Positions 4,245 to 50,515 of a DNA stretch of 64,000 nucleotides are shown one piece after another (positions within the stretch are counted from its first letter, which is position 1; each line of letters starts with the position of its first letter). Location of the stretch: assembly GCA_023819145.1 (NCBI GenBank), contig JAMWCW010000001.1, positions 2,400 through 66,399 of the forward strand, read 5' to 3'. The stretch is from Candidatus Omnitrophota bacterium. GTDB taxonomy: Bacteria; Omnitrophota; Gorgyraeia; DTHP01. The notes beneath the pieces were generated by a model. That model did no database searches. It saw only the letters and a list, made by a program, of their open reading frames with translations, and had not been told where the DNA came from. The position numbers and the translations under genes were made by a program.

Positions 4245-5177
4245 TTATGTTCCTCTTCTTTCCTTTACATAGTTTGACCCTTCCAGAGATTTGGCATATT
4301 CTTTTAATTCTGCACCGATCTGGGCAATTTCTGCCACATGGGAGAGTTTGCGTTTTTCATTGGTTACTACCGCAATGGAAATCGTCATAAGGGGAGTTTG
4401 CAGAGGATTACCTTTTCTGTCTTTTCCTAAAATGTATCCCTTTGAGCGGTCTTCCTCATCATATAGTTCAGGGACCATCTTATCAAATTCCTTGATGATG
4501 TAAGGGCAAAGGGTATCAACTTTATCGGGAGTAGTAATGATTATAAAGTCATCTCCTCCAATATGCCCGATGAAATCTTCTTTATTTCCTCTGGCTTCTG
4601 TTCCTTTAATTAAGACTCTTGCAGTCTCCTGAATTGCCCTGTCTCCACGTTCAAAACCATAGCGGTCATTGAATACTTTGAATTTATCAAGGTCTATATA
4701 GCAAACCGCAAAATTTTTATTCTCTCTGATGCGATTTTCAAGCTCATTTTGTATTGAGACATTCCCCGGTAGATGAGTCAGAGGATTGGCATCTAAATCT
4801 ATCTCTGTCCTGCGCATAACCATCTTTACACGGGCTACCAATTCCATAGGTTCAAAGGGTTTGACAATATAATCATCCGCTCCTGAATCTATTCCTTTTA
4901 TTTTATCGGCTGTTTCTCCTCGTCCGGTAAGCATAATGATAGGGATATGTCTTAAGAGGATATCTTTTTTTATGGCACGGCAGACTTCCGGTCCGTTAAG
5001 TTTAGGCATCATGAAATCAATGATGATTAAATCCGGAGGTCTTTTCGATACCTTATCCAAACCCTCTTCGCCGTCACCTGCTTCGGTAACTTCATAACCT
5101 TCTGCTTCCAGCACTATTCTCAATACATCCCTGATATCTGGTTCGTCGTCAACAATAAGAATTCTTTTTTTAGCCAT
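4245..5177 (-). CDS. response regulator: REC receiver + GGDEF-like domain (GGDDF variant)
   Basis: 'RILIVDDEPDIRDVL...DLIIIDFMMPKLNG...KPF' is a receiver domain. C-terminal 'DLDKFKVFNDRYGFERGDRAI...IGHIGGDDFIIIT' is a GGDEF-type fold whose signature reads GGDDF. Confidence 0.75.
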   Translation of the reverse strand: MAKKRILIVDDEPDIRDVLRIVLEAEGYEVTEAGDGEEGLDKVSKRPPDLIIIDFMMPKLNGPEVCRAIKKDILLRHIPIIMLTGRGETADKIKGIDSGADDYIVKPFEPMELVARVKMVMRRTEIDLDANPLTHLPGNVSIQNELENRIRENKNFAVCYIDLDKFKVFNDRYGFERGDRAIQETARVLIKGTEARGNKEDFIGHIGGDDFIIITTPDKVDTLCPYIIKEFDKMVPELYDEEDRSKGYILGKDRKGNPLQTPLMTISIAVVTNEKRKLSHVAEIAQIGAELKEYAKSLEGSNYVKERRGT

Positions 5178-5179
5178 GT

Positions 5180-8179: not shown

Positions 8180-10633
8180 ATGTCAAAAATTGAGGGAGGA
8201 AACAAAATGAATGAGGTATTGGTAAAAGGAAAGAGGAAGGCTAAGTCAATGAAGGAAGAGGAGATGAGTTTAAAGACAGATTACGGATATTTTACAAATG
8301 ATGGTAAAGAATATGTAATTATTAACCCCCAGACTCCTATGCCTTGGATTAATGTGATTTCCAATGGAGATTACGGTTTTGTTCTTTCCCAGACGGGCTC
8401 AGGTTTCTCTTGGTACAAAAATGCAAATTTAAGCAGAATCAACCGCTGGGACCAGGACTTAATTACCGATACCTGGGGTAAATATATTTATATTCGTGAT
8501 GAAAAAACAAAAAAGTTTTGGTCGGTGTCTTGGAAACCTACATGTCCCTCCTTTAAAAATTATAGAGTAACCCATGGGATTGGCTATACGAAGATTTATT
8601 CTTTATACGAAAACATTGAACAAGAACTTCTGCTTTTTGTTCCGCTCGAAGAACCTTTGGAGATTTGGTGTCTTAAATTGAAAAATCTTTCCCGCCAGGC
8701 ACGCAAGTTGAATATTTTTTCTTATTTAGAGCTTCTTCTGGGAAATGCTATGGACCCCCACCGTGAATTTCAGAAGACATTTATTGAAACCGATTTTGAT
8801 AATAAAACAAAAATATTCTGGGGAAGAAAAAGAAAGATTCCTGTCCCTGACCATATCTCTACTGGACTTTCCGAATACCCCATTTCTTGCTTCCACAGTG
8901 TGAATATTGAACCCATTGCCTATGAAGGAGAAAAGCGTAATTTTATTGGGATGTATAGAAATCCTGCTTATCCGCTTGCCTTAGAAAGAAAGAAACTTAC
9001 CAATACAACGGGGAGATGGTTTGATTCCGTCGCCAGTTTACAGGTAGAGCTTAAACTTGCTTCTCAGGAAGAAAAGACTGTTGTCTTTATTTTAGGCTCT
9101 TGCGAAGATGAGAATTATGTTAAAGAATTGGTCAAAAAATACAGGAATGTAGAAAAAGTAGAAATGGCTTTTCAGAAAACAAAAGATTTTTGGGAGGGTT
9201 TACTTTCGGGAATAAAGGTAGAAACTCCTGACCCTGCCTTTAACTTTATGACCAATTACTGGTTAAAGTATCAGGCAATTTCCGGAAGGCTTTGGGCAAG
9301 AACCGCCTATTACCAGTCTTCAGGTGGCTTTGGTTTTCGTGACCAGTTACAGGATTCCTTAGCTTGTCTTCCTTTAGCACCCGAGCTTACCAAGAAACAG
9401 ATTATGCTCCATGCCGAGCATCAGTTTACGGATGGCACAGTTTATCATTGGTGGCATAACCTTTTGGAACGCGGTGCCCATACCAATATGTCCGATAATC
9501 TCTTATGGTTAGTCTATATTACTCTTCATTACCTGAATGAGACAGCGGATTTCTCTATCTTAGATGAAAAGGTGAAATACGTTGATGGAGAATCTGAGCC
9601 AATATATAATCATTGTATTAAAGCAGTGGATAAAGTTCTTTCTCGTTTTTCTCCACGCGGACTTCCTTTGATTGGAGCGGGAGATTGGAACGATGGACTT
9701 TCCAGTGTGGGTTTAGAGTGGAAAGGCGAAAGCATCTGGTTAGGACATTTTCTCTATGGGATATTGCAGCAATTCGCTCCCATTTGCGAAAAAAGAAACG
9801 ATTTTGAAAGAGCGGGTAATTATCGGAAACGCGCTGAGGAATTAAGGGAAAATATCAACAAATACGCTTGGGATGGTGCTTGGTATATAAGAGCAACCAA
9901 AGACAATGGAGAAGTTTTAGGTTCTTCATCCTCGAAAGAAGGAAAGATTTTCCTCAATGCTCAAACCTGGGCAGTGATTCATGGAACCGCTACGCCGGAA
10001 AGGGCCAAAGAATGTATGGACTCGGTAGAGAAACATCTTTTGCGTGAATACGGACCTTTACTGTTTTATCCAGGATACACTCAACCCGATAAAGAAATCG
10101 GTTATCTTTCTCGTTATGGTGAGGGCTTAAGGGAAAATGGGGGAGTCTATACCCATGCAGCCACCTGGACGATTATTGCGGAAGTGATTTTGAAGCGACC
10201 AGAGAAAGCTTATGAGGTTTATTCCAAGATTTGCCCCGCAAAAAGAGGGTTAAAACCAGAGATTTATATGGCAGAACCTTATGTTACACCGGGTAATATT
10301 GATGGCCCGCAATCTGCCTATTTTGGAAGAGGGGGCTGGACTTGGTATAGCGGTTCGGGTGCTTGGTTATTCAAGGTGTCCTGTGAGTGGATTTTAGGTA
10401 TCCGCCCCACATTAGAAGGTTTATTAATTGACCCCTGCATTCCCAAAGATTGGGCAGGTTTTAAGGTAGTCAAGAGATTCCGTGGGGCAACTTACGAGAT
10501 AGAGATAGAAAATCCCCAAAAGGTAAGTTTCGGAGTAAAAGAAATACTTCTTGATGAACGAAGGTTGGAACACTCCCTTATTCCTGCGCTTTCTGATGGC
10601 AAAACCCATCAGGTGAGAGTGGTTTTAGGATAG
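8180..10633 (+). CDS. GH94-family glycoside phosphorylase (cellobiose / beta-glucan phosphorylase-like)
   Basis: RBS AGGAGG. No signal peptide. N-terminus 'KEYVIINPQTPMPWINVISNGDYGFVLSQTGSGFSWYKNANLSRINRW' closely resembles the conserved N-terminus of cellobiose phosphorylases ('EYVIT.P.TP.PWINY...GGGYSFY.DA.L.RITR', recalled from memory). ~817 aa is the typical GH94 size. 'GDWNDGL' region is consistent with the (alpha/alpha)6 catalytic domain. Confidence 0.65.
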   Translation: MSKIEGGNKMNEVLVKGKRKAKSMKEEEMSLKTDYGYFTNDGKEYVIINPQTPMPWINVISNGDYGFVLSQTGSGFSWYKNANLSRINRWDQDLITDTWGKYIYIRDEKTKKFWSVSWKPTCPSFKNYRVTHGIGYTKIYSLYENIEQELLLFVPLEEPLEIWCLKLKNLSRQARKLNIFSYLELLLGNAMDPHREFQKTFIETDFDNKTKIFWGRKRKIPVPDHISTGLSEYPISCFHSVNIEPIAYEGEKRNFIGMYRNPAYPLALERKKLTNTTGRWFDSVASLQVELKLASQEEKTVVFILGSCEDENYVKELVKKYRNVEKVEMAFQKTKDFWEGLLSGIKVETPDPAFNFMTNYWLKYQAISGRLWARTAYYQSSGGFGFRDQLQDSLACLPLAPELTKKQIMLHAEHQFTDGTVYHWWHNLLERGAHTNMSDNLLWLVYITLHYLNETADFSILDEKVKYVDGESEPIYNHCIKAVDKVLSRFSPRGLPLIGAGDWNDGLSSVGLEWKGESIWLGHFLYGILQQFAPICEKRNDFERAGNYRKRAEELRENINKYAWDGAWYIRATKDNGEVLGSSSSKEGKIFLNAQTWAVIHGTATPERAKECMDSVEKHLLREYGPLLFYPGYTQPDKEIGYLSRYGEGLRENGGVYTHAATWTIIAEVILKRPEKAYEVYSKICPAKRGLKPEIYMAEPYVTPGNIDGPQSAYFGRGGWTWYSGSGAWLFKVSCEWILGIRPTLEGLLIDPCIPKDWAGFKVVKRFRGATYEIEIENPQKVSFGVKEILLDERRLEHSLIPALSDGKTHQVRVVLG

Positions 10634-10758: not shown

Positions 10759-11337
10759 ATGAGTAAAGTTTTAGGAGGTTTGTTTTTAGCAGTGCTGCTG
10801 TTGGTGACCTCTTCTGCTTCTGCCCAAGAGAAGCTGGTGATTGCCGATTTTGACAGCGGAGTAAAACCCAACAACATCGGTGGCGACTTTGGGGCTTGGG
10901 ATAAAGACCCTGCGGATTTTACCCAGATGTGTGTGGAGAGTTTTAATGTTACGGAAAGATATGGCGAATCTGGTTTTTGCATGGCCATTGATTATGATGT
11001 TGACTCTCCTAATCCTGCCTACAATGGTTTCTGGATGAAATTAAACGGCGCAGATTTTTCCAAGTATAAGAAACTATTGCTTAAGGTAAAAGGAGATGTC
11101 ACCAAAGGTTACACCAAAGTAGTTAAAATAGAATTGAAGAATAATAAAGGAGAAGTAGGGAAATACTATATTACGGAAGTAGCCGATAATTGGAAAACTT
11201 TAGAAATACCCTTCTTAAAATTCGCTGGAATTACCGACTTCTCTAATATGACTGAATTTGTTATTGTTTTTGAAGATTGGCGTTCGACTAAAAAAGAGGG
11301 AAGAATCTATATTGATGATTTGATGGTAAGCGAATAA
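10759..11337 (+). CDS. small secreted protein consisting of one beta-sandwich CBM/CIA30-like module
   Basis: RBS AAAGGAGGTGA. Signal peptide 'LFLAVLLLVTSSASA'. Motifs 'DFDSGVKPNNIGGDFGAWDKDP', 'NPAYNGFWMKLNG', 'KGEVGKYYITEV', 'EFVIVFED...KEGRIYIDDL' are shared with the 13424 paralog and with module copies in other proteins of the locus. Confidence 0.5.
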   Translation: MSKVLGGLFLAVLLLVTSSASAQEKLVIADFDSGVKPNNIGGDFGAWDKDPADFTQMCVESFNVTERYGESGFCMAIDYDVDSPNPAYNGFWMKLNGADFSKYKKLLLKVKGDVTKGYTKVVKIELKNNKGEVGKYYITEVADNWKTLEIPFLKFAGITDFSNMTEFVIVFEDWRSTKKEGRIYIDDLMVSE

Positions 11338-11355
11338 TCCTAAAAGTTAGGGAAA

Positions 11356-11387
11356 TTGGGCGCAGCAAATTTGCTGTGCCCAATTTT
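11356..11387 (+). terminator. intrinsic terminator-like hairpin + T-run
   Basis: ttgggcgcagcaaa/tttgctgtgcccaa near-palindrome (one G.U) followed by tttt. Confidence 0.45.
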
Positions 11388-11395
11388 AACCGCCA

Positions 11396-13324
11396 ATGAA
11401 AAAAGTTTTTATATTTTTTATAATTTTTTTATTATCAGTAGATTATGCTTTCCCCCAGGCAAAGAAATTGTCCCTTGTCCCCGAGAAACTTTTTACCACT
11501 AAATATATCGATGATTTTAATGATGGAGCTCTACCTAATCTTTTGGGAGGGGGGATGAAGGTTGAAGTAGAATCTCCTTCTGAACTTTCTTTTTCCCACG
11601 ATAGAGCACAAGCCTTGGAGAGTAAAGGATACAGTCTTAAATTAAAGTATCGTCTTTATCCTCAGAAAAAAGCAAACCTGATTATTGATTTAAATGAGAT
11701 TGATATCAGCCAGGCATATGGAATTTCTTTTTGGATAAAGTATTTAAAAAGGCCAAAACTGGAAATTTTCTTGGAGGATGGCAAGGGTAATCGGACAGGC
11801 GCGGCTTTAGAGAAATATCTTATTCCCCAAGAGAACTGGCAGAAGATTTCGCTAATGCGGGGAGATTTTCCTGATATTGATTTCAACTGTTTGAAAAACC
11901 TTACACTTACCATCTACGCTTCTGAGGTGGAGACGGGAGAATTTTTTCTGGATGAATTTTTATTTTTTGGTCCTTCCTATCTATTTTTTGAATCTATAAA
12001 GGATAATCTCTATGGCTTTCCTGTAAAAAAGAATTTAGACTCTAAATATTTACTAAATAAACCCGATGAATTTTTATTAAAAACCATTGCCCACGATACC
12101 TGGCTTTATTTTAAAAACTCGGTAGATAGAAAGACGCATTTACCAGTTGACTGGATTGATTTGGATGAAACTAAGGAATACCGCATTGGAGACTATACTT
12201 CGCCGACAAATATTGGGCTATATTTTCTTTGTTTAGTAGGTGCCTATGATTTAGGTTTAATTACTAAAGAAGAAGCAGTAGAGCGTATTGGGAATACCCT
12301 TGAGACTTTAAAAAAACTTTCCCGCTGGAAAGGTCTATATTACAATTGGTATTCCACGACGAACTTGCAGATTACCCGCAGATATATTTCGTCAGTAGAT
12401 AATGGTTGGTTAGCTGCCGGACTTATTGTTGTCAGACAGACATTCCCCGAACTATATATTCCCTGCAGTGCGCTTTTAAAAGAGATGGATTTCTCTATCC
12501 TTTATGACCCAGTAGAGGGAAAGTTATACTTAGGCTACGAGTTAAACCGTGAACCACCCGTGCCCACTCCCTATCATTATGGTCAAATTGCTACGGAGCC
12601 ACGGGTTACCTCTTTGGTGGCTATTGGGAAAGGTGATGTCCCTCCTGACCACTGGTTTAGAATCTTTCGGACTTTACCTATTTCTTGGAATTGGCAGAGG
12701 CAGAAACCACAAGGAAGATATCGGGAGTATTTAGAAATAGATGTTTTTGAGGGCTATTATGAATATAAAGGGTTTAAAATTGTTCCTTCTTGGGGTGGAA
12801 GCTTGTTTGAATTCCTGATGCCTTTGTTGGTTCTGAAAGAGAAAGAGCTTGCTCCTAGAGGTCTGGGATTAAATAATTTAAACGCCATAAAAGCACACAT
12901 CGATTATGCCTTAAATGAGCAAAAGTATCCTGTCTGGGGACTTTCTCCTTGCGCTACTCCCGAGGGAAGATATGGAGGGTATCATGAATACGGAGTAAAA
13001 GATTTGGGAGCTAAAGGATATTCCGATGAGGGTGTAATTACTCCCCATGCATCAATATTAGCCATTGATTATCTTCCTGAGGAGGTGGTGAAGAATATTC
13101 GCCAGTTGCTTAAAAATTTTGATTTATACGGTGAGTATGGAATGTATGATTCTGTGGATATTCATACCCAGAAAGTTGCTTCACGTTATCTTTGTCTTGA
13201 CCAGGGAATGATTTTTGTTTCTTTGGCAAATTACCTGACAAAAGGGAAAATTCGTGAGCGCTTTCACCAAGACCCGATAATTAACAGCGTGGAGTATTTG
13301 TTAGAAATAGAAGAATTTTTCTAA
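11396..13324 (+). CDS. secreted protein: N-terminal CBM-like module + (alpha/alpha)6 glycoside-hydrolase-like domain (glucoamylase/GH144-like, tentative)
   Basis: Signal peptide. N-terminal module ('...NWQKISLMRGDF...TGEFFLDEFLFFG') resembles the CBM-like modules elsewhere in the locus. The remainder ('GDYTSPTNIGLYFLCLVGAYDLG', 'WKGLYYNWYSTTN', 'SSVDNGWLAAGLIVV') has the feel of glucoamylase-like (alpha/alpha)6 barrels. Paralogs at 14479-15916 and in the 36259 ORF. Confidence 0.4.
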   Translation: MKKVFIFFIIFLLSVDYAFPQAKKLSLVPEKLFTTKYIDDFNDGALPNLLGGGMKVEVESPSELSFSHDRAQALESKGYSLKLKYRLYPQKKANLIIDLNEIDISQAYGISFWIKYLKRPKLEIFLEDGKGNRTGAALEKYLIPQENWQKISLMRGDFPDIDFNCLKNLTLTIYASEVETGEFFLDEFLFFGPSYLFFESIKDNLYGFPVKKNLDSKYLLNKPDEFLLKTIAHDTWLYFKNSVDRKTHLPVDWIDLDETKEYRIGDYTSPTNIGLYFLCLVGAYDLGLITKEEAVERIGNTLETLKKLSRWKGLYYNWYSTTNLQITRRYISSVDNGWLAAGLIVVRQTFPELYIPCSALLKEMDFSILYDPVEGKLYLGYELNREPPVPTPYHYGQIATEPRVTSLVAIGKGDVPPDHWFRIFRTLPISWNWQRQKPQGRYREYLEIDVFEGYYEYKGFKIVPSWGGSLFEFLMPLLVLKEKELAPRGLGLNNLNAIKAHIDYALNEQKYPVWGLSPCATPEGRYGGYHEYGVKDLGAKGYSDEGVITPHASILAIDYLPEEVVKNIRQLLKNFDLYGEYGMYDSVDIHTQKVASRYLCLDQGMIFVSLANYLTKGKIRERFHQDPIINSVEYLLEIEEFF

Positions 13325-13423
13325 TAAACTCTTAAACGCAAAACCCTAAACTCTAATTTAAGTTATTTTAGAGTTTGAAAATTTCGCGTCTTGGATTTTT
13401 AAATGAAAAGGAGGTGAGTTTTT

Positions 13424-14155
13424 ATGTTTAAAAGGTTTTTTTGGTCTTTGTTGGTTATTTTTCTCCTTCTGGGCATAAGTCTCTCCTTATATAGTTGCGC
13501 TCCCAAGAAGGAAGCAAGTAAACCCGAGGAGAAAAAAGAGGAGGCAAAAGGGGTAATTACTGAATCTGCTAAAGTAGAGGAGCCGGTACAGGAGATTGAG
13601 GTAACCGGTGAACTTGCTAAGCCCAAGCTTAAACTCACCCGCGAAGGTGCCTTAATCGCTGCTGACTTTGACACCTGCAAAAAACCTAATAATCTGGGAG
13701 GAGACTTTGGCGCCTGGAACAAAGACCCTAATGATTTTTCTCAAGGATGTTTTGACAGTTTTGTTTCTACTATTAAACGTGGAGACGATGGTTGTTCGAT
13801 GCAAATAATGTATGATGTGGATTCTGTGAATCCTGCCTACAATGGATTCTGGATGAGATTGGAAGGTGTTGACCTTTCTGCCTACAAGGCAATTTCTTTC
13901 TGGTTAAAGGGCGATGAGATGCGTGGATTTACAAAGGTATTTAAGGTAGAGTTGAAAAACACCAAGGGGCATTTAGGAAAATATTATGTAACCGAAGTGA
14001 CTAAAGACTGGAAAGAGATTGTTATCCCTCTGGATAAATTTGCCGGGTTAGAAGACAGGACTTCCATGCATGAATTTGTGATTGTTTTTGAGGACAGGGT
14101 CGCCACTAAAAAAGAGGGAGCAATCTATATTGACGATATTACATTCTTAAAATAG
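13424..14155 (+). CDS. secreted CBM/CIA30-like module protein (paralog of 10759 ORF) with Lys/Glu-rich N-terminal linker
   Basis: RBS AAAAGGAGGTGA. 'ADFDTCKKPNNLGGDFGAWNKDPNDFSQGC', 'NPAYNGFWMRLEG', 'KGHLGKYYVTEV', 'EFVIVFED...KEGAIYIDDI' align motif-for-motif with the 10759 ORF. Confidence 0.5.
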   Translation: MFKRFFWSLLVIFLLLGISLSLYSCAPKKEASKPEEKKEEAKGVITESAKVEEPVQEIEVTGELAKPKLKLTREGALIAADFDTCKKPNNLGGDFGAWNKDPNDFSQGCFDSFVSTIKRGDDGCSMQIMYDVDSVNPAYNGFWMRLEGVDLSAYKAISFWLKGDEMRGFTKVFKVELKNTKGHLGKYYVTEVTKDWKEIVIPLDKFAGLEDRTSMHEFVIVFEDRVATKKEGAIYIDDITFLK

Positions 14156-14211
14156 GAAAATAAGGCAAGCATTGCTTAAAATTCTGCCTTAAATTAAATT
14201 TCTGGTCCACC

Positions 14212-14240
14212 TTGACGATTCAGATTTTTCATGCTATACT
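14212..14240 (+). promoter_or_regulatory. extended -10 promoter (TTGACG, 17 nt, TGcTATACT)
   Basis: ccaccTTGACGattcagatttttcaTGcTATACT. 'cttgacgatt' also occurs in the promoter-like site at 20388. Confidence 0.4.
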
Positions 14241-14281
14241 TTTTGTAGATAAGGCACAATGCTGCGGGCGGTAAATAGGAA

Positions 14282-14312
14282 GGCGGAGTTAAAATTTTAG
14301 CTCCGCCTTTTT
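14282..14312 (+). terminator. rho-independent terminator (GGCGGAG...CTCCGCC + TTTTT)
   Basis: 7-bp GC-rich stem, 12-nt loop, then a U-run. Lies ~40 nt downstream of the 14212 promoter's predicted start site. Confidence 0.5.
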
Positions 14313-14478
14313 ATGTTTCTCTATTTGTATTTGTGGTTTTATACCGATTTCTTTCCTTCAAGAGATGGTTGTAAATTCGTGGCAGAGGGTTTAATTCTTG
14401 AAGTGCCTCTTGACACTGTCCTATTTATAAGCTACATTTTTAAAGAGAGTTTTTTATTTATAAAAGAGAGGGTTTAAA

Positions 14479-15916
14479 ATGTCATTAAAGCAAAAATTTA
14501 ATTATGTGTTTCTCTTTGTCTCGATATTGTTTTTTACTTTTTTTTCTACAAATTCAATAAGCGCATTTTTTTATTCCCAGAGTCTACCTCTTTTTAATCC
14601 CGATTTAAACACACCCCTTTTACAATCTTCCGAACAGCGGTCACAATTAAACATCCAGACCATTCAGCGCGAGCAGAGCAATTATTTTTTTATATAACAT
14701 TGGTATAGACCCTGATACTAACCTTCCGCATAACTATGTTTTTGTCAAAAGTGATGGTGAATTGGAAATAGGATTCTACAATACCCCCACGGATATTGGG
14801 TACTACCTAGCATGTCTGGTGGGAATAGCAAAGGGAGATATAAGAAATGATACCGTCAGTCAAACAGATGCCATCAACAGACTAATTCATGCCTTGGAGG
14901 TTCTTAAATCCGCTCCCAAAAAAGATGGTTTACTTTATTGGTATGATATTTTTTATCCTGAGATAAAAATCTCTCCTACAAATAGTTATGTCTCAGCAAT
15001 AGATAATGCATTTTATTCTGCAGCATTGGGTTTGATTATAGGGGCTTTTATTGACGACCAAAGCCAGTCGGCGCAGAGACTTGTAAATTTGGCTTTTGAA
15101 CTACTTGCTGAACAGAAAGAAGGTTGGTCTCAACTTTATGACCCAGAGAGAAAACTTTTGCTTGGAGGTTATTCAACAACTGGCGAAGACCCTTTGTACT
15201 ATATAGACCGGGCATACAACGAAGGACGTTTGGCAACGCTGATGGCAATAATTTTGGGAGATGTTCCGCGGGATGCTTGGGAGAATTTAGAAGAATTTTA
15301 TTTAGATTATACCTTATCTCATGGCAAAAAGATGAAAATTCTTGCCCCTTGGGAAAGCGCTTTCCAGGCATGGATGCCGTTGGTCTTTGTGCCCGAGATG
15401 GAATGGTCTCCTCAAGGATTTAAGATTGCCCACCAGAGATATTTAGAAGTACAGATTGACTGGGCTCAACGGGAAAATATGCCTGCTCTTTACGCCGAAT
15501 GTTCCGACCCTTTTACGAAAGATAAATATCAATATATTACAGGTATAGCCATACCTGGTGCCTCCGAGTCTTCTGCGTGGGGTGTGCCCATTCGCTCCGA
15601 TATAGGTTCAGTATATGCAATTGGACTTGCTTATATGGTAGATGAAAAAGTTGGAGAAGATTTTTTTGCCAAATTAATTACGAGGTTTCCTGAAATAAGT
15701 TCTACGCTAGGTTGGTTTGATTCAGTGGGAAGGAAAGGAACAGAACCAGAGGTTTTTTGGGCTACGAGTAGGGCTTATGTGGCCAAGAACCAATTTGTAT
15801 TACTTTCTGCCCTGAATTACCAAAATAACCATCGCTATTTTACACGATTTTTAGAGGTTATAGGAAAATTAGAGTATATAAGAAGTCTTTATAATAACAA
15901 ATCATTTAATTTTTAA
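14479..15916 (+). pseudogene. (alpha/alpha)6 GH-like paralog of 11396 ORF lacking the CBM module; reading frame broken at a T7 homopolymer (ORFs 14479-14697 and ~14651/14762-15916)
   Basis: Signal-peptide ORF 14479-14697 ends '...SNYFFI*' inside 'tattttttta'. The downstream frame reads 'IIFLYNIGIDPDTNLPHNYVFVKSDGELEIGFYNTPTDIGYYLACLVG', homologous to 'WLYFKNSVDRKTHLPVDWIDLDETKEYRIGDYTSPTNIGLYFLCLVG' of the 11396 ORF. Removing one T from the 7-T run fuses the two frames. Confidence 0.5.
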
Positions 15917-15920
15917 TATA

Positions 15921-18503
15921 ATGGATTATTTTTCTATAAAAAAAAGTAGTTTCTGGCTATGTTTAGTCTTCTTACTTTTGTCTCTAAAGGAATTAAGTGC
16001 CTTTATCGGCGTTGGTGATGATAATCTTTATAATATTTCTGCTACAAGTGGTGATTATTACCAAGTTGTAAGTCCTGCAGTTACTTCTTTGTTTCAACGG
16101 GCAAAAACAGAAATCTTTCCCCCTGTATTTAGTGATACTTTAGCTGCTTCCATTGGTATTATAACACAATACAGTTGGAAGAGTTTTCCCGATAATCCCA
16201 ATCAGAGTATTTCCGCAGTATACGACTATGACCCCTATTTTGGTGCGCTTCCTATTTTGCGTATTGATTATGATGTTTCTTCTTACTCCGCAGGAGTATT
16301 TAACGGTTATGCCTTAAAAATTAATACACAGGATTTTTCGCAAGATTTTTATAACCCTATTGTTTTCTATATTCGCGGTGACCCGACATTAGGGTTTACC
16401 CGGAGGTTGAAGATAGAATTTAAAAATAGCCGTGGCAAAGTAGGTTCATATATCATTGAGGGAATTAGTGAAAACTGGCAGAAGATTACTATTGATAAAA
16501 CCCGCGTAGGCAGAGATTTTTCCTTTAGAAGCGATTGGCAGGATATAGAAGAGATAGTTCTGGTATTTGAAGAATGGGGAGTTACTGCGCAGGAGGGAAG
16601 AATATATTTAGCAGGATTTACTTATCCTGAATCCTGGCAGGTTGCTTCTGCAGTAGAAAATATTTACGCAGAATTGAGCCTTCTTTCTCCTGATGAACAA
16701 CAAAGAGTGCTTTCGCAGATTGTTGGTCCGGGGGTAGCCTATAGTTTCAAACCTTTAGATATCGCATCCATAAAAAATTGGATTTTATCTTCTCAAGAGC
16801 ACATTGCTAACGATAGCGGAATTTACTCCTTGAACCAGATGCTTAGAAGTTTAGGTTCTCATACTCCTTCTTTTTCTGATTTAAGAATTGCGGGGGTAGT
16901 CTCTTCCCTGCTGGCAGGGAAAGAGGGAAGAGGAGGGTATAATTCTTCTTTATATGACTTATACCGTTCTGCACAGCTAAACGGTCATCCGATTTATGCA
17001 TTTAGACTTCCTAATTTTTCCGCCTTGGAAGATTTCTTTAACAAAACAGGTAAAATTCCCCTTGTTGCCGAGTTAAAGACTGGAGAGTTTGTCCTCTTAA
17101 ATGGATTTGAGAGAGGCGGGTTTCTCTGGCTAACCAAATTTGTCAAATTTGATTGCTTGGGTGAAGAGGTAACGATGAGCGAACAAGAGTTTACTCAACT
17201 CTGGACAGGTAACATTCTTAGTTTAAGAACTGCCTCTTCCTATCAGCCGTTAGCCAATGAAGAGGTTTTTCAAGGAACAAGTATAACTTCCTATATTGTA
17301 GAAGAAATGTTAGAGAGAGCAAAAGAACTTTCTAATACAGCATATCACCCTCCAGAGATAAAGCCCGTGAGTGTGCTTGACCCTCCTCTTTATGGTCGTC
17401 CTGAGGCAGAGGGTTTAGTTTATCAGGAATATCTGGCTATCGGAGGAGACAAATTTTATGATGATGGTTTGTGGTGGTTTCAAGCAAGACCGCGGGGAAG
17501 TCAAAATAAACTTCCGCTTAAGGTATTCTTGTATGACCCGAAAAGTCTTCGTTATAGTGAAGTTCCTTATGATTTTAATCGCTATAATTATTCTCGTGCT
17601 ACACCGCCAATTACCTATGTTCCTCCAGAAGGGAGGTATATTACTGCTTTAGATATTGGACACATTCTGGTATCAGGAAGTTTTCCCCAGTTTTTTACCA
17701 TTGGTGGGGATGGTTACATGCGTTTTGTGCCTTTGACAGAAGGTAGGGAAATGGGAGCATCTTTCCGAGTAGCTGGGCAAAACATTACCCACTCCCGGCA
17801 GGGAGGGGATCCTTACGATGAGAGTTTTCCTATTGTCAGGGAATTGTATGTGAAAAAGGTTTCGGAGAGCGTTATCAATCTCGTTGCCCTCGTGGATGCT
17901 GAGGGTTTTACCGGGGTTTTAGATATGTATCTCTATCCTCAGGAAATAACCCGTATGGAGGTAGATGCTCGGTTTTTTATGCGACGCGATATGCTAATTT
18001 CCCAGGAGCCAGATACAGGTTTTGCGGGGTTTAGCAGTATGTTTTTCTTGGGCGATGAAAAAAATGACGCAATGATTGGAGAAGTACGTCATACTCCTTG
18101 GAATCCTTATGATGAAGCCCATGATTCCGATTATTTAGTGGTGCATTTTGCGGATGGGAGTAGGGTTGAGCAACTAATTAATAGACCCTTCGAAGCAGGA
18201 AGGGTAGATAGATACGACTTTTCTAAGCCCGATACAGAAATTGTGGGGTTTTCTTTGCAACAGAGAGATAGAAATCCCAGCCACTACCGTGCTTTTCCTA
18301 CCTCTGATTATACTAATCGTCCATCTTTTGATTTAAGAGTGCCTTCCTCCAACATTCCTCTTAGTGTAAAACTCTATGAGATATCTACCGATAACGAGTA
18401 TGTAGATAATATAGTCGCTTTTTTGACCATGGGGAGGAGTTTATACCGTGGAGAAGAAGTACATATAAGATATGAGGTAACCGCTTATGATTACCCGGGA
18501 TAA
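15921..18503 (+). CDS. secreted 860-aa protein: N-terminal CBM/CIA30-like module + possible C39-like (papain-fold) domain
   Basis: Signal peptide 'FWLCLVFLLLSLKELSA'. Module 'FNGYALKINTQDF...KVGSYIIEGISENWQKITI...EEIVLVFEEW...QEGRIYLAGF'. Mid-region 'GEFVLLNGFERGGFLWLTKF...EVTMSEQEFTQLWTGNILSL' resembles the C39-like pattern seen in the ORFs at 60918 and 62579. Confidence 0.4.
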   Translation: MDYFSIKKSSFWLCLVFLLLSLKELSAFIGVGDDNLYNISATSGDYYQVVSPAVTSLFQRAKTEIFPPVFSDTLAASIGIITQYSWKSFPDNPNQSISAVYDYDPYFGALPILRIDYDVSSYSAGVFNGYALKINTQDFSQDFYNPIVFYIRGDPTLGFTRRLKIEFKNSRGKVGSYIIEGISENWQKITIDKTRVGRDFSFRSDWQDIEEIVLVFEEWGVTAQEGRIYLAGFTYPESWQVASAVENIYAELSLLSPDEQQRVLSQIVGPGVAYSFKPLDIASIKNWILSSQEHIANDSGIYSLNQMLRSLGSHTPSFSDLRIAGVVSSLLAGKEGRGGYNSSLYDLYRSAQLNGHPIYAFRLPNFSALEDFFNKTGKIPLVAELKTGEFVLLNGFERGGFLWLTKFVKFDCLGEEVTMSEQEFTQLWTGNILSLRTASSYQPLANEEVFQGTSITSYIVEEMLERAKELSNTAYHPPEIKPVSVLDPPLYGRPEAEGLVYQEYLAIGGDKFYDDGLWWFQARPRGSQNKLPLKVFLYDPKSLRYSEVPYDFNRYNYSRATPPITYVPPEGRYITALDIGHILVSGSFPQFFTIGGDGYMRFVPLTEGREMGASFRVAGQNITHSRQGGDPYDESFPIVRELYVKKVSESVINLVALVDAEGFTGVLDMYLYPQEITRMEVDARFFMRRDMLISQEPDTGFAGFSSMFFLGDEKNDAMIGEVRHTPWNPYDEAHDSDYLVVHFADGSRVEQLINRPFEAGRVDRYDFSKPDTEIVGFSLQQRDRNPSHYRAFPTSDYTNRPSFDLRVPSSNIPLSVKLYEISTDNEYVDNIVAFLTMGRSLYRGEEVHIRYEVTAYDYPG

Positions 18504-20355
18504 ATTGGGGATTGTGGTCTTAATTTTTGGTCTGTTAGTCGGAGAGGGTGAGGCTTTTTATCTGGGAAAGAGTAATGATTATAATCTTCCTCCCGCAGGG
18601 GAGACTACGACTTTTATGCAGGCTAAGAGTGAAATACCGGCGATAACAAATGCCGCCTTACCTGATGTCTTAACCGATACAGATGGTTCCTTGGGGATTG
18701 ATGCTCCTTACTGCAAATATATTTTAATTTATAACCTTACTCCTTTTTACATTGCGTTGGACGATAATTTAAGCCGAATAATTGATAGTGCTTTAACGAA
18801 TTTTGGCATTGAGGACATAAGGTCCTATCTTTCTGCTTATAACTTAGAAATAATAGATTTAAGGTCAGCAATATTCCTCCTTTTAAAATCTCCATACTAC
18901 GTTAACGGTAACCTTGCCCTTCCCGATGAGGCACTTTCTGGTTTAGATTCAAGAACAAGTGCACTCTTTTTGCTTGCCCAAGAATTATCACAAATGATTC
19001 CTTATGCGGATAAAGAATATATTCGTAATTTTAATGTTTCTATTGTTGAACCTGATATAAAATTAGGGCTATCTTATGAGAAGATAAAAAGCGTATTTCT
19101 TCAAGTCCGTCAACAGAAGATATTAGAGGGAAAAGTTGATTATGGTGTGTTTTATAAATATAAAGATGAGATAGAGCGAGCAGTAGTTTCCGCAATTGCC
19201 GGTTTTAATTATTCATCAGATCGTTTTCATCTCCTCTCTGAAGAGATTACGCCTCAGGCAAAAAATGATTTTTATAATCGGATTAGATTCTGGTTAAAGA
19301 CGCAGGAATACATTCCACCTGAGATATTTTCTCTTGTTGAGGATAAGGCAAAGGAATTATTTGATTCTCTTCGAATTAAGAAAGGGCTATTTCCTACAAG
19401 CCCCTGGCAGGGAGAGATTGCCCAGATCTATCGCCTTTTTGGAGGCGAGATTCCCAATCAACTTGAGCGGGGGAAACTCTCTCCTTTTGCTGACTGGGGT
19501 GAGGATATTTATAAGCGTCTCTGGGATATTTCCAGTAATATTGAAAAAGCGTATTCTTCCTTTGGCGTTTTGCTTAAAGGTCCAGATATGACTTTGGAGC
19601 AGTTAAAGACAAAAATAGATTCTCTTGGTCCTGCAATTGTCGGTATAAATAGGGAAGGTAGAAAAGATTTTGTCAAGGTTTTAGAAATTTTCTCGCCGGA
19701 TAAAGGGGAAGGCACAGTAACTTGTCAAGATGCAAATGGAAATGTTTTTGCTCTATTGCTTGGTGAATTTTTTACTTATTGGGACAGGTTTGTTTACATT
19801 CCTGAAGAAAAAAGTATTTCGGCTTCGGTAATTTCTGATTTTGATTTTTCAAATGATAGATTTGGTTTAATTAAAGGTTATGGCCAGTGGACGATTAATG
19901 AATTTGATGATTTAAAGGCAAAAATTGGTATAAACACAAATATTCCTTTATCATCCACTTTACCTTATTTTTATACCCAATATCAGATTGGGGGAGAGAA
20001 AACTTACAAATATGCTGGCTATTTCCAGACTGGCATATGGCTTACTTTTAAAGAAGACATAAAGTCGCTATTATTACGGGGCAGTGCCTTAAGTTTTGAT
20101 GCTTATGTTTCCGCTTATCCAGGAATTAAGTATGTAAGGATAGAACTGAAAGAAGATGAAACAGGAAGAATAATTAGTGAATTCATCATCCCCCGCGAAC
20201 GCCTCAATTTAGCAAACTGGAATACTTTTAAGATTCCCATTCACTATTATCCTGCGGGAACATTAGTGCTTACTTTGGGGGTAATCGGAACCTATCCCGG
20301 TCTTTACGCCCCCCAGAACCATTTTCTGGCGATTGACCGCCTTTATATTGAATAG
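18487..20355 (+). CDS. secreted 622-aa protein with C-terminal CBM/CIA30-like module
   Basis: Start overlaps the previous stop by 17 nt. Signal peptide 'LGIVVLIFGLLVGEGEA'. C-terminal module '...YVRIELKEDETGRIISEFIIP...NWNTFKIPI...LVLTLGV...HFLAIDRLYIE'. Confidence 0.4.
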   Translation: MITRDKLGIVVLIFGLLVGEGEAFYLGKSNDYNLPPAGETTTFMQAKSEIPAITNAALPDVLTDTDGSLGIDAPYCKYILIYNLTPFYIALDDNLSRIIDSALTNFGIEDIRSYLSAYNLEIIDLRSAIFLLLKSPYYVNGNLALPDEALSGLDSRTSALFLLAQELSQMIPYADKEYIRNFNVSIVEPDIKLGLSYEKIKSVFLQVRQQKILEGKVDYGVFYKYKDEIERAVVSAIAGFNYSSDRFHLLSEEITPQAKNDFYNRIRFWLKTQEYIPPEIFSLVEDKAKELFDSLRIKKGLFPTSPWQGEIAQIYRLFGGEIPNQLERGKLSPFADWGEDIYKRLWDISSNIEKAYSSFGVLLKGPDMTLEQLKTKIDSLGPAIVGINREGRKDFVKVLEIFSPDKGEGTVTCQDANGNVFALLLGEFFTYWDRFVYIPEEKSISASVISDFDFSNDRFGLIKGYGQWTINEFDDLKAKIGINTNIPLSSTLPYFYTQYQIGGEKTYKYAGYFQTGIWLTFKEDIKSLLLRGSALSFDAYVSAYPGIKYVRIELKEDETGRIISEFIIPRERLNLANWNTFKIPIHYYPAGTLVLTLGVIGTYPGLYAPQNHFLAIDRLYIE

Positions 20356-20416: not shown

Positions 20417-20557
20417 TTATATGGAAAATAAAAAATTAAAAACATACATAATTATTACCTTATGGCTAAAAGGTAGAAAATGAAATATTTATTTTATATA
20501 AAAATTGCACTAGACAATTCCCTAGCGTATTTAAGGGAGGAAAGGGAGGAAAAACGG

Positions 20558-23500
20558 ATGAAAAATTTGGCAAAGAAAATAATTAGCTTACTACTCGTGG
20601 AATTATTCTTATTTTCTCAGACAAATTTTGGACTTACAACTCTTTTATCACCTCCACCACAACATTTATCAGTAAATAATAATCAAGATAATCAAACTCT
20701 CTTATTACCACCACCTCTTTGTGTTGATCAACAGTCATCTTTTCCCTCTTCTGTGGTGAATATACCTGAGGAGAGGATTAGAGCAGAACTTAAACCTTTG
20801 ATTGAAAAATATCTTGAAGATACCAATAGATCGTTGAATGATTTGAATACTGTAGTTAATAATTTCAGCTATTTAGTAATAGGAGGAGATGATGGTTTAG
20901 ACCTTTTCGCCTTAGAGGAAGTAAAAGCCATATTAGAAGACTCTCTTACACGACAACTAGAAACCCCTTTAGCTCAGTTTTTAGGAAAAGCTGTGCTTGA
21001 TTTAAGCCAGCGCGAAGCGGTAGTTAAACTTTCTGCCTGGAGTGGTTTATATAAAGCGGTAGGAGGATTTTTAAACAGGGACTTAAAATTAGAAGATATA
21101 AAAGACCAAAAAGCGCTCAATGATTTTGCTTTGCTGATAGCAGAAAAAGGCTATGCTTTGGGGGGTATAAAAAGGGTTTTGGGAGATGAGAAGGTAAAAG
21201 CACTTTATAGTTTAGAGGAAATATGCAATCTGCTTTCCCAGTTGCGCGGAGGCGAAACAACCTTGACCTTATTACAGGCGTTAAACGGAAATTTGCCCTC
21301 AATAAACAATTTTACTCCTTTTTCAGCAATCCCAACTGGTTATGAAGGAGGATTCAGTTTATCAGGTAGCCGGCGTAGTCCAGCTGATGCGGAGATTGGA
21401 TTTATTGTGCCTTCCCTGGAGTTAACAAATATTGCCTTCAAGATAAAGATAGATTTAGAAGAAGGTAGTGTTATGCCCGCAGTTAAATTAGAACTGGTTG
21501 ATGCCCAGGGTAATAAAGCGACTACTACCTTAGATGAGGTTACAGATTCGGGTAAGGAATATACAATAAGTAGAGACAGAGATGATTTTAAAATAGATCT
21601 AATAACTACAGCATTTGACTGGAGTAAGATAGAACGAGTTAGCTTATTTTTAGTTACCGGTGGAAGTTCTCAAGGAAAAATAACCTTGAGTGGATTGGAC
21701 GCTTTTTTACTTAGAGAAAAAAAAGAAGAGGTGTTATCAGCCGAGAAAATAAACTTTTTACTTAATTATGGGCTTTTGGGACTTAAGAAATGGGAGTTAC
21801 CTCTGGATATAGAGTTTATCAAATACATCGGTCAACTTTTAGACCATGAAACTACACGGAAAATGGTGGCTAACTGGATGGCGGTTCTACCTTATGCTCC
21901 TCAGCTCATTTGGCGTGATTTGTTTATGGAGGGTTGGAATATTAAGGATGAAGGCATCTTGGGCTATCTTACACTTACTGCCTTAGAGAGGACCGGGAAG
22001 AATAAACTCAGTCCCGCAGAGATATTGGCGACCATTCAATCCCTCGTAAGTGAATTTGAAAAGGGTGATTTTGGGATAAGCGAGGATAGGGTCTTGGTGC
22101 AATTAATGGAGAATGCTTTGGGAAGAAAACTTGATTTTAAATCTTATATGGATGTTATGGCATACCGCTACTGGAGTAAATTAAGAGATTTATTGGGTCA
22201 GGAATTTGTTAGCGAAAAATTAAACAGCCGTAGTTTGGCTAAGAGCTTTCCAAAACTTGGAGATAAAATCGAACTCATAAGAAGATTAGCTTCGGCAATA
22301 GGATTTGATATAAAACTTATGACATCTAATCCTGATACTTGGGATTGGTTCTGGAAAGAAATGGCAATAGGCACCTCCCCAGATATGATTGTGGATATAA
22401 TTTGGGGAGGTTTTGTCTTTAAAGAATTACTCGAAGGAACTCTCTGGATAGGCGAAATAGATGTGCACCATCATATCGAACAGCCTTTCTGGAGATATTT
22501 TGTGGAATATCTTCCTTATTCCGGAGCTTCCAAAGAGCAGGTAGTGAAATTTATTTTAGAAAAATACCGAAATTTACCTTATGATTCGGTAGCAGTGGGT
22601 TTCCCGGAAGTAGCTTCCTACGGAATTACTACTGCAGGTAGAACTTCCTATAATGTAGAGGCGCAAGGTCATCCTTTTACCGCGGATGAAACTAAGAGAA
22701 TGCTTTTGCTTTATCCAGCGATAAACCAGTTACTTTCCCAATTAATCGGTCTTCCTCAGCAAACCGCGCCTGTTTTGAGCATTAGAAGTTTCTTCACCGA
22801 TGAGCTTGATAGGTTGTTAAATTATTTTCTGGAAGCGCGGGATTTCTCCAGCGGAGCGATGGCTGATGCCTTGAGTGGAGTAGATAATTCTACGGCTGCC
22901 GGAGGATTTTTAGTGATGGCGGCAATCATTGCTGCAGAAGTGGGGAAGATATCAAAAGATGAGGCTAATAAGATTATTGGTAATTTCGTAAAATTTATCT
23001 CCGTGACCCAGAAGATGCATGGTTTGCTTTCCCATTATACACGGGGAGGAACAGCAGAGCGTGCAGGAAATTCAGAGTTTTCACTTATTGATACTTATTT
23101 AGCAGTTTCCGCACTCATTGCTTACCGAAATTGGCAAGGTGCAGAACCTGAAGTAGTAAAAGCAATTAACGCTTTTTTAGGTGCGGTTCAACTGGAAGCA
23201 TTGCAGGTACAGGCTAGAACGACAGGACTAATGGCCCGGGGTGGTATTTTGAACTTTGGGGTTACACCCGAAAGGGGTTTTACCGGAGGAATAGTAGATT
23301 TTTATAACGAATATATTCTCTGCTATCTTATTGCCATTGGTCAGACAGATAATCCAAATTTTGCCAGAGATATGGCTTTTTGGTTCTATAAAGGCATCAC
23401 CCGTAAACAGGGAAGCGGTGTTTCGGAAGAAGCATTTACTTATCCCTTTGAGAACTCGCTGTTTCAGTTTCAATATCCTTTGGTTTTTCTGCCGATGATG

Positions 23501-34431: not shown

Positions 34432-36243
34432 ATGAAAAGAGGGGGATTAAATATTCTTTGTGCAGTGCTTTTTTTCCTTCCGGCAGGATATTGGGGAGAT
34501 AATTTGAAAATTTCTGTTCTTTCTTCACAACAGACTCAAGATGCCCAGAAAGTGGCTGCGATAGCTTCTCCATCATTAAGCGAAATGGTTTCAGGACGTC
34601 CCACTGTTGAGACACCTTTTTTGGCTGGACCAGAGTATTATCTACCTTTTATTACTTTGCGCAAAAATTTGGATAAAAAGCACATTTGTTCTTGGGTTCC
34701 TCGGCAGTCCTTTTGGACGGGATGGCTCGAACCTAACAATTACTGGACAAGAATTGGTGACTTTATCAATCTCGATTATTTGTTGGAAGAGTCGGAAATA
34801 AATAGCGGAAAATTCATTCTTTATAATTTAGAAATCATTGATAGACTTTTACAAATGGACGTTAAACAAATCGCCGGCAAAAGGGTAAAGAAGATTGAAG
34901 AAATTTCTCCACTTAAAACTATTGGGATTGGCAGTCGCTTTCCCGAGGACAAAGATAAAATTTACCTTGACCAATTACCGGGGATAAAGGGAGTAAAATT
35001 TATTTTAGAAGATAATTCCGAGATTGTAGTCTTACCATCTTTTTACCAACAGCCCACTTTGGCAATCTTAACTTACGGCGGTAATAATAGAGACAAGAAT
35101 GTTTCGGTTGCCATAACCCAGAAATTGGAAGAGAGCTTTCTGGATACGGTGCTTAACCAGGTAATAATCTCAGCTAAGGAGGAGATTAGAACCCAGACCT
35201 TGGAAGATGTGGTGAAGAAATATCTCTTTGGGGAGATACCTGCACAACTTAATTATGTCCAGTGGAAACGCTTGGTAGAGGAGATGGAGAGAGTAGAAAC
35301 TGAATTAAAGGAAGTGACGGTTACTACCTCTTTAAGAGAGCTTTTAGGAAATGTTTTGCCCTCAATAAACAATTTTACTTCTTTTTCAGCAATCCCAACT
35401 GGTTATGAAGGAGGATTCAGGTTATCAGGTAGCCGGCGTAGTCCAGCTAATGCGGAGATTGGATTTATTGTGCCTTCCCTGGAGTTAACAAATATTGCCT
35501 TCAAGATAAAGATAGATTTAGAAGAAGGTAGTGTTATGCCCGCAGTTAAATTAGAACTGGTTGATGCCCAGGGTAATAAAGCGACTACTACCTTAGATGA
35601 GGTTACAGATTCGGGTAAGGAGTATACAATAAGTAGAGACAGAGATGATTTTAAAATAGATCTAATAACTGGAACGGCATTTGACTGGAGGAAGATAGAA
35701 CGAGTTAAATTATCTTTAGTTACCGGTGGGAGTTCTCAAGGAAAAATAACCTTAGAGGATATCGATTTAAAAAAGGAATCTCCTGCTTCTGTTTCTTTAG
35801 GGACGATGATGGCAGAATATAAGTTACGGGCATACCTTAAACCTTATGTTGCCAAATTCTTTGACCTGCCTGTTTATTCTCCCTATTTTGACACCAAACC
35901 CATCGTTAAAAAATGGTTTGATTGCTTTGCCAATGCTACCTCTGCTGGCGTAGTCAAAGGAGATTTTTCTGTAGCGGAGGTACTTGGGTCTATAGGTTAC
36001 TGGGGTATGCTTAAAGCATTTCTTACCTCTCTTCGTCAGATTATAACCTTGCCTTCTAATCCTGTAGAGGAAAAAATACTTTTAGATTTTGGTGGAGATA
36101 TTTATTCTTTTGTGCAGGGACTTGACTTGTCTTCGGCAGTTCCCGAGGGAGTGGAGATAGAGTCATTGACTTTTGAAACAAAATTGCTATTATTACCCGA
36201 GGATATTTTGCTTTTTATAATGCGGGAGGCTTATGAAATATAA
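34432..36243 (+). CDS. secreted protein, 603 aa, carrying the same ~130-aa beta-sandwich cassette as the giant protein
   Basis: RBS AAGGGGG. Signal peptide 'LNILCAVLFFLPAGYWG'. Residues ~310-440 ('LPSINNFTSFSAIPTGYEGGF...GSSQGKITL') are near-identical to giant-protein residues ~245-375. Confidence 0.5.
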   Translation: MKRGGLNILCAVLFFLPAGYWGDNLKISVLSSQQTQDAQKVAAIASPSLSEMVSGRPTVETPFLAGPEYYLPFITLRKNLDKKHICSWVPRQSFWTGWLEPNNYWTRIGDFINLDYLLEESEINSGKFILYNLEIIDRLLQMDVKQIAGKRVKKIEEISPLKTIGIGSRFPEDKDKIYLDQLPGIKGVKFILEDNSEIVVLPSFYQQPTLAILTYGGNNRDKNVSVAITQKLEESFLDTVLNQVIISAKEEIRTQTLEDVVKKYLFGEIPAQLNYVQWKRLVEEMERVETELKEVTVTTSLRELLGNVLPSINNFTSFSAIPTGYEGGFRLSGSRRSPANAEIGFIVPSLELTNIAFKIKIDLEEGSVMPAVKLELVDAQGNKATTTLDEVTDSGKEYTISRDRDDFKIDLITGTAFDWRKIERVKLSLVTGGSSQGKITLEDIDLKKESPASVSLGTMMAEYKLRAYLKPYVAKFFDLPVYSPYFDTKPIVKKWFDCFANATSAGVVKGDFSVAEVLGSIGYWGMLKAFLTSLRQIITLPSNPVEEKILLDFGGDIYSFVQGLDLSSAVPEGVEIESLTFETKLLLLPEDILLFIMREAYEI

Positions 36244-46397: not shown

Positions 46398-46415
46398 AAA
46401 TAATGAGGGATTTTT

Positions 46416-50445: not shown

Positions 50446-50458
50446 CCGCTAACCTCAT

Positions 50459-50504: not shown

Positions 50505-50515
50505 TCTAAACGAAG

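Follow-up and report, generated by a model that had tools for sequence, protein, structure and literature searches.

Candidatus Omnitrophota locus and its recurrent module

Positions 8180 to about 62400 of the window, as the whole 64-kb stretch of Candidatus Omnitrophota DNA analysed here (contig JAMWCW010000001.1, forward strand) is called below, form a single long run of open reading frames (ORFs) on the + strand, and the nearest database proteins of the window's ORFs are those of Candidatus Omnitrophota metagenome-assembled genomes. Several of the encoded proteins carry a β-sandwich module, which is the subject of this article, and proteins are referred to by the position at which their ORFs start. 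A sequence-only reading of the same DNA had pointed out the module in seven ORFs, all of which are present as described. As to the module itself, kinship is secure in four of them (10759, 13424, 11396 and 15921) and probable for a cassette found in a giant protein and in 34432, while the C-terminal region of 18487 has to be taken off the list. The count of at least seven copies therefore shrinks to four secure ones, two that represent one duplicated cassette, and one region with fold-level similarity only. Most of the large proteins from 10759 onward start with a hydrophobic, signal-like segment, and the glycoside hydrolase (GH) family 94 protein at 8180 has none; hydropathy and visual inspection were the basis for calling export signals. 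No NCBIfam family matched any of nine proteins of the locus.

As the earlier reading had proposed, two of the copies, 10759 and 13424, are stand-alone exported proteins, and the others are situated within enzymes or large proteins. The two stand-alone modules are 61% identical over 163 residues and score 39.0 bits (10759) and 32.6 bits (13424) with Pfam CBM_11, both above the gathering threshold of 27. In 10759 the module is preceded by a signal peptide that looks cleavable between SSASA and QEK, and the protein would be a soluble exported form. In 13424 a lipobox-like signal (LSLYSC, read by eye) is followed by a Lys/Glu/Pro-rich linker and then by the module, and this protein is probably a membrane-tethered lipoprotein. 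The fused copies required more sensitive comparisons. The N-terminal domain of 15921 is recognized by a hidden Markov model (HMM) of two sequences with E 5e-26 (hhalign P 8e-44). That of 11396 was ambiguous, like the cassette, when in-window HMMs made from two or three copies were used, and both cases were resolved by external homologues and shuffle controls: the 11396 domain gives 96.6% in hhalign (P 6e-10; z = 20.5 against 150 column shuffles), and in a jackhmmer search over ORFs of related loci it appears at E 2e-21 before its inclusion in the profile. Searched as isolated segments against Pfam, neither the 15921 nor the 11396 module has a match of its own, to CBM_11 or to any other family, even at E 10, and they join CBM11 only via profiles of the stand-alone subfamily. 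Judged by these profiles, the four copies are certainly true homologues. No additional copy was found by profile searches in the other 22 ORFs of the window. Coordinates of the copies and of two neighbouring enzyme genes are collected in Table 1.

Table 1. Modules, related regions and two enzyme genes of the locus (positions in the window; aa, amino acid residues)
Feature	Position	Strand	Evidence
Stand-alone CBM11-like module, protein 10759-11337, aa 23-192	10825..11334	+	Pfam CBM_11, AlphaFold, Foldseek
Stand-alone CBM11-like module, protein 13424-14155, aa 74-243	13643..14152	+	Pfam CBM_11, identity to 10759
Diverged CBM11-like module, N-terminus (aa 35-190) of 642-aa exported protein 11396-13324	11498..11965	+	hhalign, jackhmmer
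CBM11-like module, N-terminus (aa 62-237) of 860-aa exported protein 15921-18503	16104..16631	+	HMM, hhalign
Cassette copy 1 (probable diverged relative), aa 271-407 of 3803-aa protein 20480-31891	21290..21700	+	hhalign, shuffles, DNA repeat
Cassette copy 2 (probable diverged relative), aa 309-446 of 603-aa protein 34432-36243	35356..35769	+	identity to copy 1, jackhmmer
C-terminal region (aa ~445-622) of protein 18487-20355, predicted all-beta CBM-like sandwich	19819..20352	+	AlphaFold, Foldseek
GH94 phosphorylase without signal peptide, directly upstream of first stand-alone module	8180..10633	+	Pfam GH94 catalytic and supersandwich domains
Paralogue of 11396 catalytic domain without CBM module, frameshift-split	14479..15916	+	26% identity to 11396 aa 264-635

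Family, fold and candidate ligand-site residues

The module had been guessed from sequence to be a β-sandwich similar to CBM11, a family of carbohydrate-binding modules (CBMs), or to CIA30. This guess was correct, and therefore the module belongs to a known family. Pfam CBM_11 (PF03425) is the best-scoring family. An AlphaFold model of the stand-alone protein 10759, made with an alignment of 36 sequences, has a pLDDT (predicted local distance difference test) score of 90 and shows an 11-strand β-sandwich after the signal helix. When this model, the only copy modelled for this purpose, is searched with Foldseek as the earlier reading had advised, ranks 1-4 are all occupied by CtCBM11, the module of Clostridium thermocellum Lic26A-Cel5E (1v0a, 6r31, 6r3m and 2lro; E 2e-11 to 2.5e-9), with template modelling (TM) scores of 0.63-0.73, a root-mean-square deviation of 3.0-3.4 Å and 20% identity. 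CIA30/NDUFAF1 (7zkq_A) comes fifth with E 2e-7, and folds such as CBM4, CBM22 and CBM27 come after it. CtCBM11 is likewise the best match (E 1.5e-3) when PDB sequences are searched with a profile. The Pfam CIA30 family (PF08547) reaches 19.3 bits with 10759 and 14.6 bits with 13424, under its gathering threshold of 24. A new lineage-specific fold was considered and rejected; the module falls within CBM11, and we regard it as nearly certain that it is a diverged member of this family with a β-jelly-roll of ~170 residues.

The ligand cleft of CtCBM11 contains Tyr22, Tyr53, Tyr129, Asp99, Arg126 and Asp128, and H102 contacts the ligand as well. In an HMM alignment, Y53 corresponds to Y88 of the module, which is Tyr in 114 of 120 family members and Trp or Phe in the rest, and H102 corresponds to Y136, with Tyr or Phe in 114 of the 120. 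D128 is matched by D160, kept in 112/120, and Y129 by F161, a position taken by Phe, Leu or Tyr. In the same alignment R126 falls on Ile, and the position of D99 is not conserved. Within the stand-alone family ~30 of 170 residues are invariant, many of them charged.

The duplicated cassette and the C-terminal region of 18487

Against the narrow in-window profiles, the cassette of the giant protein and 34432 obtains 5-10 bits only. Its hhalign z is 6.7, and none of 150 shuffles reaches the observed score. The 34432 copy enters jackhmmer with E 9e-5 (19.3 bits) before inclusion, and a broadened profile purged of cassette rows aligns with the cassette over 122 columns (hhalign 92.4%, P 5e-7). The alignment starts at ~position 37 of the module and reaches its C-terminal end, and the first ~36 positions are unmatched. 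On this sequence evidence the cassette is probably an N-terminally shorter, diverged relative of the CBM11-like module. It has no Pfam match even at E 10, and 34432 has no other recognisable domain.

The two cassette copies are 88% identical over 145 aa, and at the DNA level they correspond to a direct repeat of 404-407 nt (21292-21695 and 35355-35760; 96.3% identical, 14 kb apart), whose ends match the cassette boundaries and whose flanking sequences have diverged. As a module-sized DNA repeat, the two copies count as one diverged lineage, recently copied; the repeat suggests recent domain-sized gene conversion or duplication. A full HMMER search of 1.84 billion representatives gave, as the only outside homologue of the cassette, an orthologous giant protein (P0126). 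The other matches were judged spurious, being multi-stretch matches to Big_1/invasin Ig-repeat-rich proteins, apparently via a short VDAQGN-like motif. A word-indexed protein search with the 140-aa cassette of 34432 gave no match, not even to the window's own proteins; the database in question contains the 18487 protein at 100% identity.

Common ancestry of the listed copies was examined by profile comparison, which bore it out for 15921, 11396 and the cassette and failed for the C-terminal region of 18487. With an alignment of five sequences, hhalign gives this region a probability of 0.9-1.8% (z = 1.7), and 9 of 150 shuffles score equally. The five-sequence alignment, the broadened profile and the cassette as an intermediate all failed to connect it with the module, and the region is not counted as a copy. 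A profile search of the PDB with the 18487 family gave no match, and Pfam CBM_6 (PF03422) scores 17.2 bits (E 0.0066), below the gathering threshold of 28.9. The AlphaFold model of the region is all-beta and mediocre; its pLDDT is 64 as a whole and rises to 70-89 in the final ~100 residues. Its Foldseek matches are weak ones to assorted CBM jelly rolls (CBM44, CBM4 and CBM61; E 5e-5 to 2e-4, TM 0.3-0.44), and CBM11 first appears at rank 23 and again at rank 49. From this model the region is best described as another CBM-type β-sandwich that would resemble the module at the level of the fold only. Elements of the shared pattern, namely an N-terminal DFD and a C-terminal IDD-like end, look common to many jelly-roll CBM families, and this would explain how the region came to fit the pattern by eye.

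Enzymes around the modules

What the sequence-only reading had missed is the company that the modules keep. Every enzyme that can be identified around them belongs, by similarity, to a family related to β-1,2-glucan, and these families have been assigned to β-1,2-glucan activity (PMC12102758, PMC10514313, PMC10834661). The GH94 protein is most similar to the phosphorylase domain of cyclic glucan synthase (Cgs). The catalytic domain of 11396 matches 8wy1 with E 8e-55 and Cgs 8rf9 with E 3e-53, and in Thermoanaerobacter italicus Cgs (TiCGS) the cyclisation domain is covered by this C-terminal domain over its full length, except for an insert of ~170 residues that 11396 lacks. The catalytic pair of TiCGS consists of E1356 as the acid/base and E1442 as the nucleophile (PMC10834661); E1356, which is E353 of the 8wy1 chain if the numbering is offset by 1003, an offset inferred from the fact that both Glu residues then match, is aligned with the Glu of ATEPR in 11396. 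The C-terminus of 15921 (aa ~520-855) is OpgG/MdoG-like (GH186), with 111 bits for Pfam MdoG and E 4e-11 for OpgG in the PDB (1txk), and OpgD was also matched. In the giant protein, a domain at aa ~780-1150, ~370 aa downstream of the cassette, is similar to the GH144 endo-β-1,2-glucanase CpSGL (5gzh, E 4e-11). Further relatives of the SGL-clan/GH189 enzymes are 36259 and the split gene at 14479-15916.

This split gene consists of an ORF with a signal peptide (14479-14697) and a TTG-started ORF in a different frame (14762-15916), and its ortholog in a related locus, L063 (728-2164), is one intact ORF of 478 aa. Since the junction falls in a T7 run at 14685-14691, a 1-nt indel is what splits the gene, and it would be an assembly error, a pseudogene or a case of phase variation.

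Conservation of the locus in Omnitrophota

The 192-aa protein 10759 has 1469 homologous clusters at E <= 1e-3. Among the matches listed, they are mostly 190-200 aa long and 54-66% identical, with PF03425 already assigned, and some public records carry the name "carbohydrate binding domain-containing protein" or "CIA30 family protein". In species-representative genomes, 273 stretches with the module were confirmed, nearly all of them in Omnitrophota and often with several in one genome. The proposal of a lineage-specific family has to be qualified: the proteins form a subfamily within an established Pfam/CAZy family, and public records already have names for them. A lipobox Cys and a low-complexity linker, as in 13424, are present in about 10 of 119 full-length members, for example P0064.

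Linkage was examined in 73 related loci, of which 42 are at least 12 kb long. Within these 42, a GH189/GH144-like gene is found in 36 and GH94 in 25, and in many related loci GH94 adjoins the module gene. For 34 of 74 strong module copies, a GH189/GH144-like catalytic domain starts not more than 3 kb downstream on the same strand. Ahead of this domain there is often another, weaker match to the module, so that the pair of a free module and a fusion seen in 10759/11396 recurs. Gene tables show the same gene order in L001-L004. In L003, for example, GH94 comes after the FIST-kinase-GGDEF genes, then the module and a Glycoamylase-domain gene, and farther downstream an ORF of 4135 aa; L004 additionally encodes sugar ABC permeases. 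A cluster that joins the module to β-1,2-glucan-related families is conserved in Omnitrophota, as most of the related loci examined contain it. In the literature searched, including two papers on giant proteins and the main paper on Omnitrophota genomics, this conserved locus is not described, nor is attachment of CBM11 to β-1,2-glucan enzyme families; PMC12102758 does not mention any CBM.

Some other features of the window are also to be noted. On the - strand at 4245-7969, divergent from GH94, lie genes for a FIST sensor, a GAF histidine kinase and a response regulator with GGDEF. In L003 and L005 these three genes likewise precede the GH94-module pair, and kinase and regulator matches adjoin module genes in several further loci. 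Positions 43767-52933, whose genes run in the same direction as those of the exported glucan enzymes, encode CofD-like, ROK-like, phosphoglucose isomerase and 6-phosphogluconolactonase-like proteins and the N-domain of a phosphoribosyl pyrophosphate synthetase, each with a hydrophobic, signal- or anchor-like N-terminus; such a start is odd for homologues of sugar-phosphate enzymes, whose families are normally cytoplasmic. The middle of 15921 (aa 240-515; 16640-17465) and aa ~380-440 of 18487 resemble each other and papain/C39-like peptidase folds by eye, through the motifs GEFVLLNGF and FVKVLEIF. These two regions gave no match in Pfam, NCBIfam or PDB sequence searches, and the 15921 region is conserved in L036, L057 and L063.

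Comparison with known systems

CtCBM11 (1V0A, 6R31, 2LRO; PF03425) belongs to the same Pfam family by score and shares with the Omnitrophota module the jelly-roll and fusion to domains of the glycoside hydrolase type; three candidate cleft positions (Y53, D128 and Y129) are aligned with conserved residues, as described above. Beyond the low identity, the Omnitrophota module differs in that it also exists in free exported form and in a lipoprotein, and its partners are GH189-, GH186- and GH144-like instead of GH26 and GH5. The hosts differ as well: C. thermocellum is a cellulosome-forming Firmicute, whereas Omnitrophota are a diderm candidate phylum, and the ligand is probably different. CIA30/NDUFAF1 (PF08547; 7ZKQ chain A) has a related β-sandwich, and the Pfam similarity, which is weak, covers residues 93-156. 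The function of CIA30 is protein assembly in mitochondria, whereas the Omnitrophota domain belongs to exported proteins and occurs in fusions with domains like those of glycoside hydrolases.

For 10759 and 13424, a likely working analogy is given by the surface glycan-binding proteins in polysaccharide utilization loci of Bacteroidota, non-catalytic, lipid-anchored or secreted glycan binders that are encoded beside hydrolases of the same pathway, although their sequences are unrelated and the Omnitrophota locus has no SusC/SusD pair. Compared with Cgs, SGL and OpgG, the window has separate GH94- and GH189-like proteins, at least three GH144/SGL-clan-like domains and one OpgG-like domain. The domains joined in Cgs are here split into separate, mostly exported proteins, and no family 84 glycosyltransferase (GT84) was found in the window. 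The Omnitrophota proteins also differ in having CBM11-like modules attached, which the literature searched does not describe for these families.

Proposed role and alternative explanations

How may such a module be used? It is deployed in four ways in the window: in free exported form (10759), in a probable lipoprotein with a flexible linker (13424), as the N-terminal domain of two exported enzymes (GH189-like 11396 and OpgG/GH186-like 15921) and, in what is probably a more diverged form, as the cassette (giant protein, 34432). The module would grip a β-glucan chain along its cleft. Fused copies would keep the enzymes on their substrate, like a classical substrate-targeting CBM, while free and tethered copies may serve to catch glycan, or to keep it, at the cell surface or in the periplasm. 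The glycan might be a linear or cyclic β-1,2-glucan, such as the periplasmic glucans of Gram-negative bacteria. The oligosaccharides set free would be taken up by the cell and phosphorolysed in the cytoplasm by GH94, if the pathway runs in the catabolic direction. That the module binds a glycan at all is likely. As to which glycan, β-1,2-glucan is the leading candidate because all identifiable catalytic partners belong to families with characterised β-1,2-glucan members, and we name this ligand tentatively, at slightly less than an even chance. The earlier reading had seen in the modules the organisers of an extracellular system. Taken as a whole, the evidence points to an ordinary CBM role in substrate targeting and capture, and a CBM11-type module, with β-1,2-glucan as its tentative ligand, that targets enzymes and captures their substrate is the reading which we moderately favour.

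Several points weigh against this reading. The binding and the enzyme activity of all the locus proteins are predictions from similarity. To our knowledge, the only characterised CBM11 binds β-1,4- and mixed β-1,3-1,4-glucans, not β-1,2-glucan. The residue correspondence with CtCBM11 comes from an HMM alignment of ~100 residues, outside of which Tyr22 falls, and the module of 11396 has no aromatic residue at the Y88 position. Invariance as strict as that of the stand-alone family is unusual for a CBM and could reflect a more specific role. The linkage counts stand without a random-locus control. Finally, the residue aligned with the TiCGS nucleophile E1442 (chain E439, in WGISES) is Pro in 11396 (WGLSPC), a further departure from Cgs; because of this Pro, 11396 is not a canonical GH189 enzyme and its activity is uncertain. 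The paralogue 14762 appears to retain SES in a GASES motif read by eye, and the two proteins may differ in mechanism, or one of them may be inactive.

Suppose instead that the module keeps the classical CBM11 specificity, or binds some other polysaccharide than β-1,2-glucan, for instance a polymer on the surface of another organism's cells or a β-1,4- or mixed-linkage glucan, and serves as an adhesin or anchor which does not recognise the substrate of its neighbours. Its closest solved relative by fold, CtCBM11, binds β-1,4- and β-1,3-1,4-glucans, and the aligned aromatic residues are conserved. Identity to CtCBM11 is just 20%, however, Pfam scans of ORFs of the window (64 kb) gave no cellulase or lichenase family, and the tight conserved linkage is to β-1,2-glucan enzyme families; we consider this explanation unlikely. 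Neighbourhood can also be read in the opposite direction of metabolism: the locus might build or remodel its own periplasmic β-1,2-glucans in the manner of osmoregulated periplasmic glucans (OPGs), and the modules would bind the nascent endogenous glucan. OpgG and OpgD are periplasmic and required for OPG synthesis (PMC10514313), cyclic glucan synthase contains the two domains to which GH94 and the 11396 domain are nearest, in diderms a Sec signal means the periplasm by default, and a cyclic di-GMP two-component set adjoins the locus here, in L003 and in L005. Yet neither GT84 nor an OpgH-type GT2 glycosyltransferase was recognised in the window, the related locus L004 has sugar ABC permeases, and the downstream phosphoglucose isomerase-like and 6-phosphogluconolactonase-like genes suit catabolism, so that self-synthesis seems to us quite improbable.

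It might further be imagined that the module does not meet any glycan but works between proteins, folding or docking the very large exported proteins just as CIA30/NDUFAF1 does for complex I. CIA30 is the fifth-best fold match and has a weak Pfam match, the ~30 invariant residues of the stand-alone protein indicate very high conservation, and the module gene is near giant genes in several genomes. Against this, the CIA30 scores stay under the Pfam cutoff which CBM_11 passes, fusion to glycoside-hydrolase-like domains is a classic arrangement of CBMs, and aromatic residues are conserved at ligand positions of CtCBM11. We give an assembly role very little credence.

Implications

The domain is a new, diverged subfamily of a known family and is already annotated as such in public records; its pairing with β-1,2-glucan enzyme families in a conserved Omnitrophota locus has no description in the literature searched. 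In annotation, CBM11-family domain is a suitable name for the modules, and the count becomes six related copies plus a β-sandwich in 18487 without demonstrated kinship. The useful result is the context: a conserved Omnitrophota cluster joins the module to families so far known only from β-1,2-glucan metabolism, and several of the glucan-enzyme-like domains lie inside or beside very large exported proteins. β-1,2-Glucans are rare polymers, found mainly in the periplasm of Gram-negative bacteria, and the enzymes acting on them have been recognised only recently.

We know of no CAZy CBM family defined by specificity for β-1,2-glucan. It is conceivable, if doubtful, that the present subfamily is such a β-1,2-glucan-specific module and that, together with the exported GH189-, GH144- and GH186-like enzymes and the proteins of several thousand residues, it forms a conserved apparatus with which the Omnitrophota, as ultra-small and putatively predatory or epibiotic bacteria, harvest periplasmic or cyclic β-1,2-glucans of their Gram-negative hosts. 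If ordinary β-glucans are bound, the finding would be a routine one. If β-1,2-glucan is bound, the module would offer a new probe for glycobiology and a concrete substrate for the host-dependent lifestyle that has been proposed for Omnitrophota.

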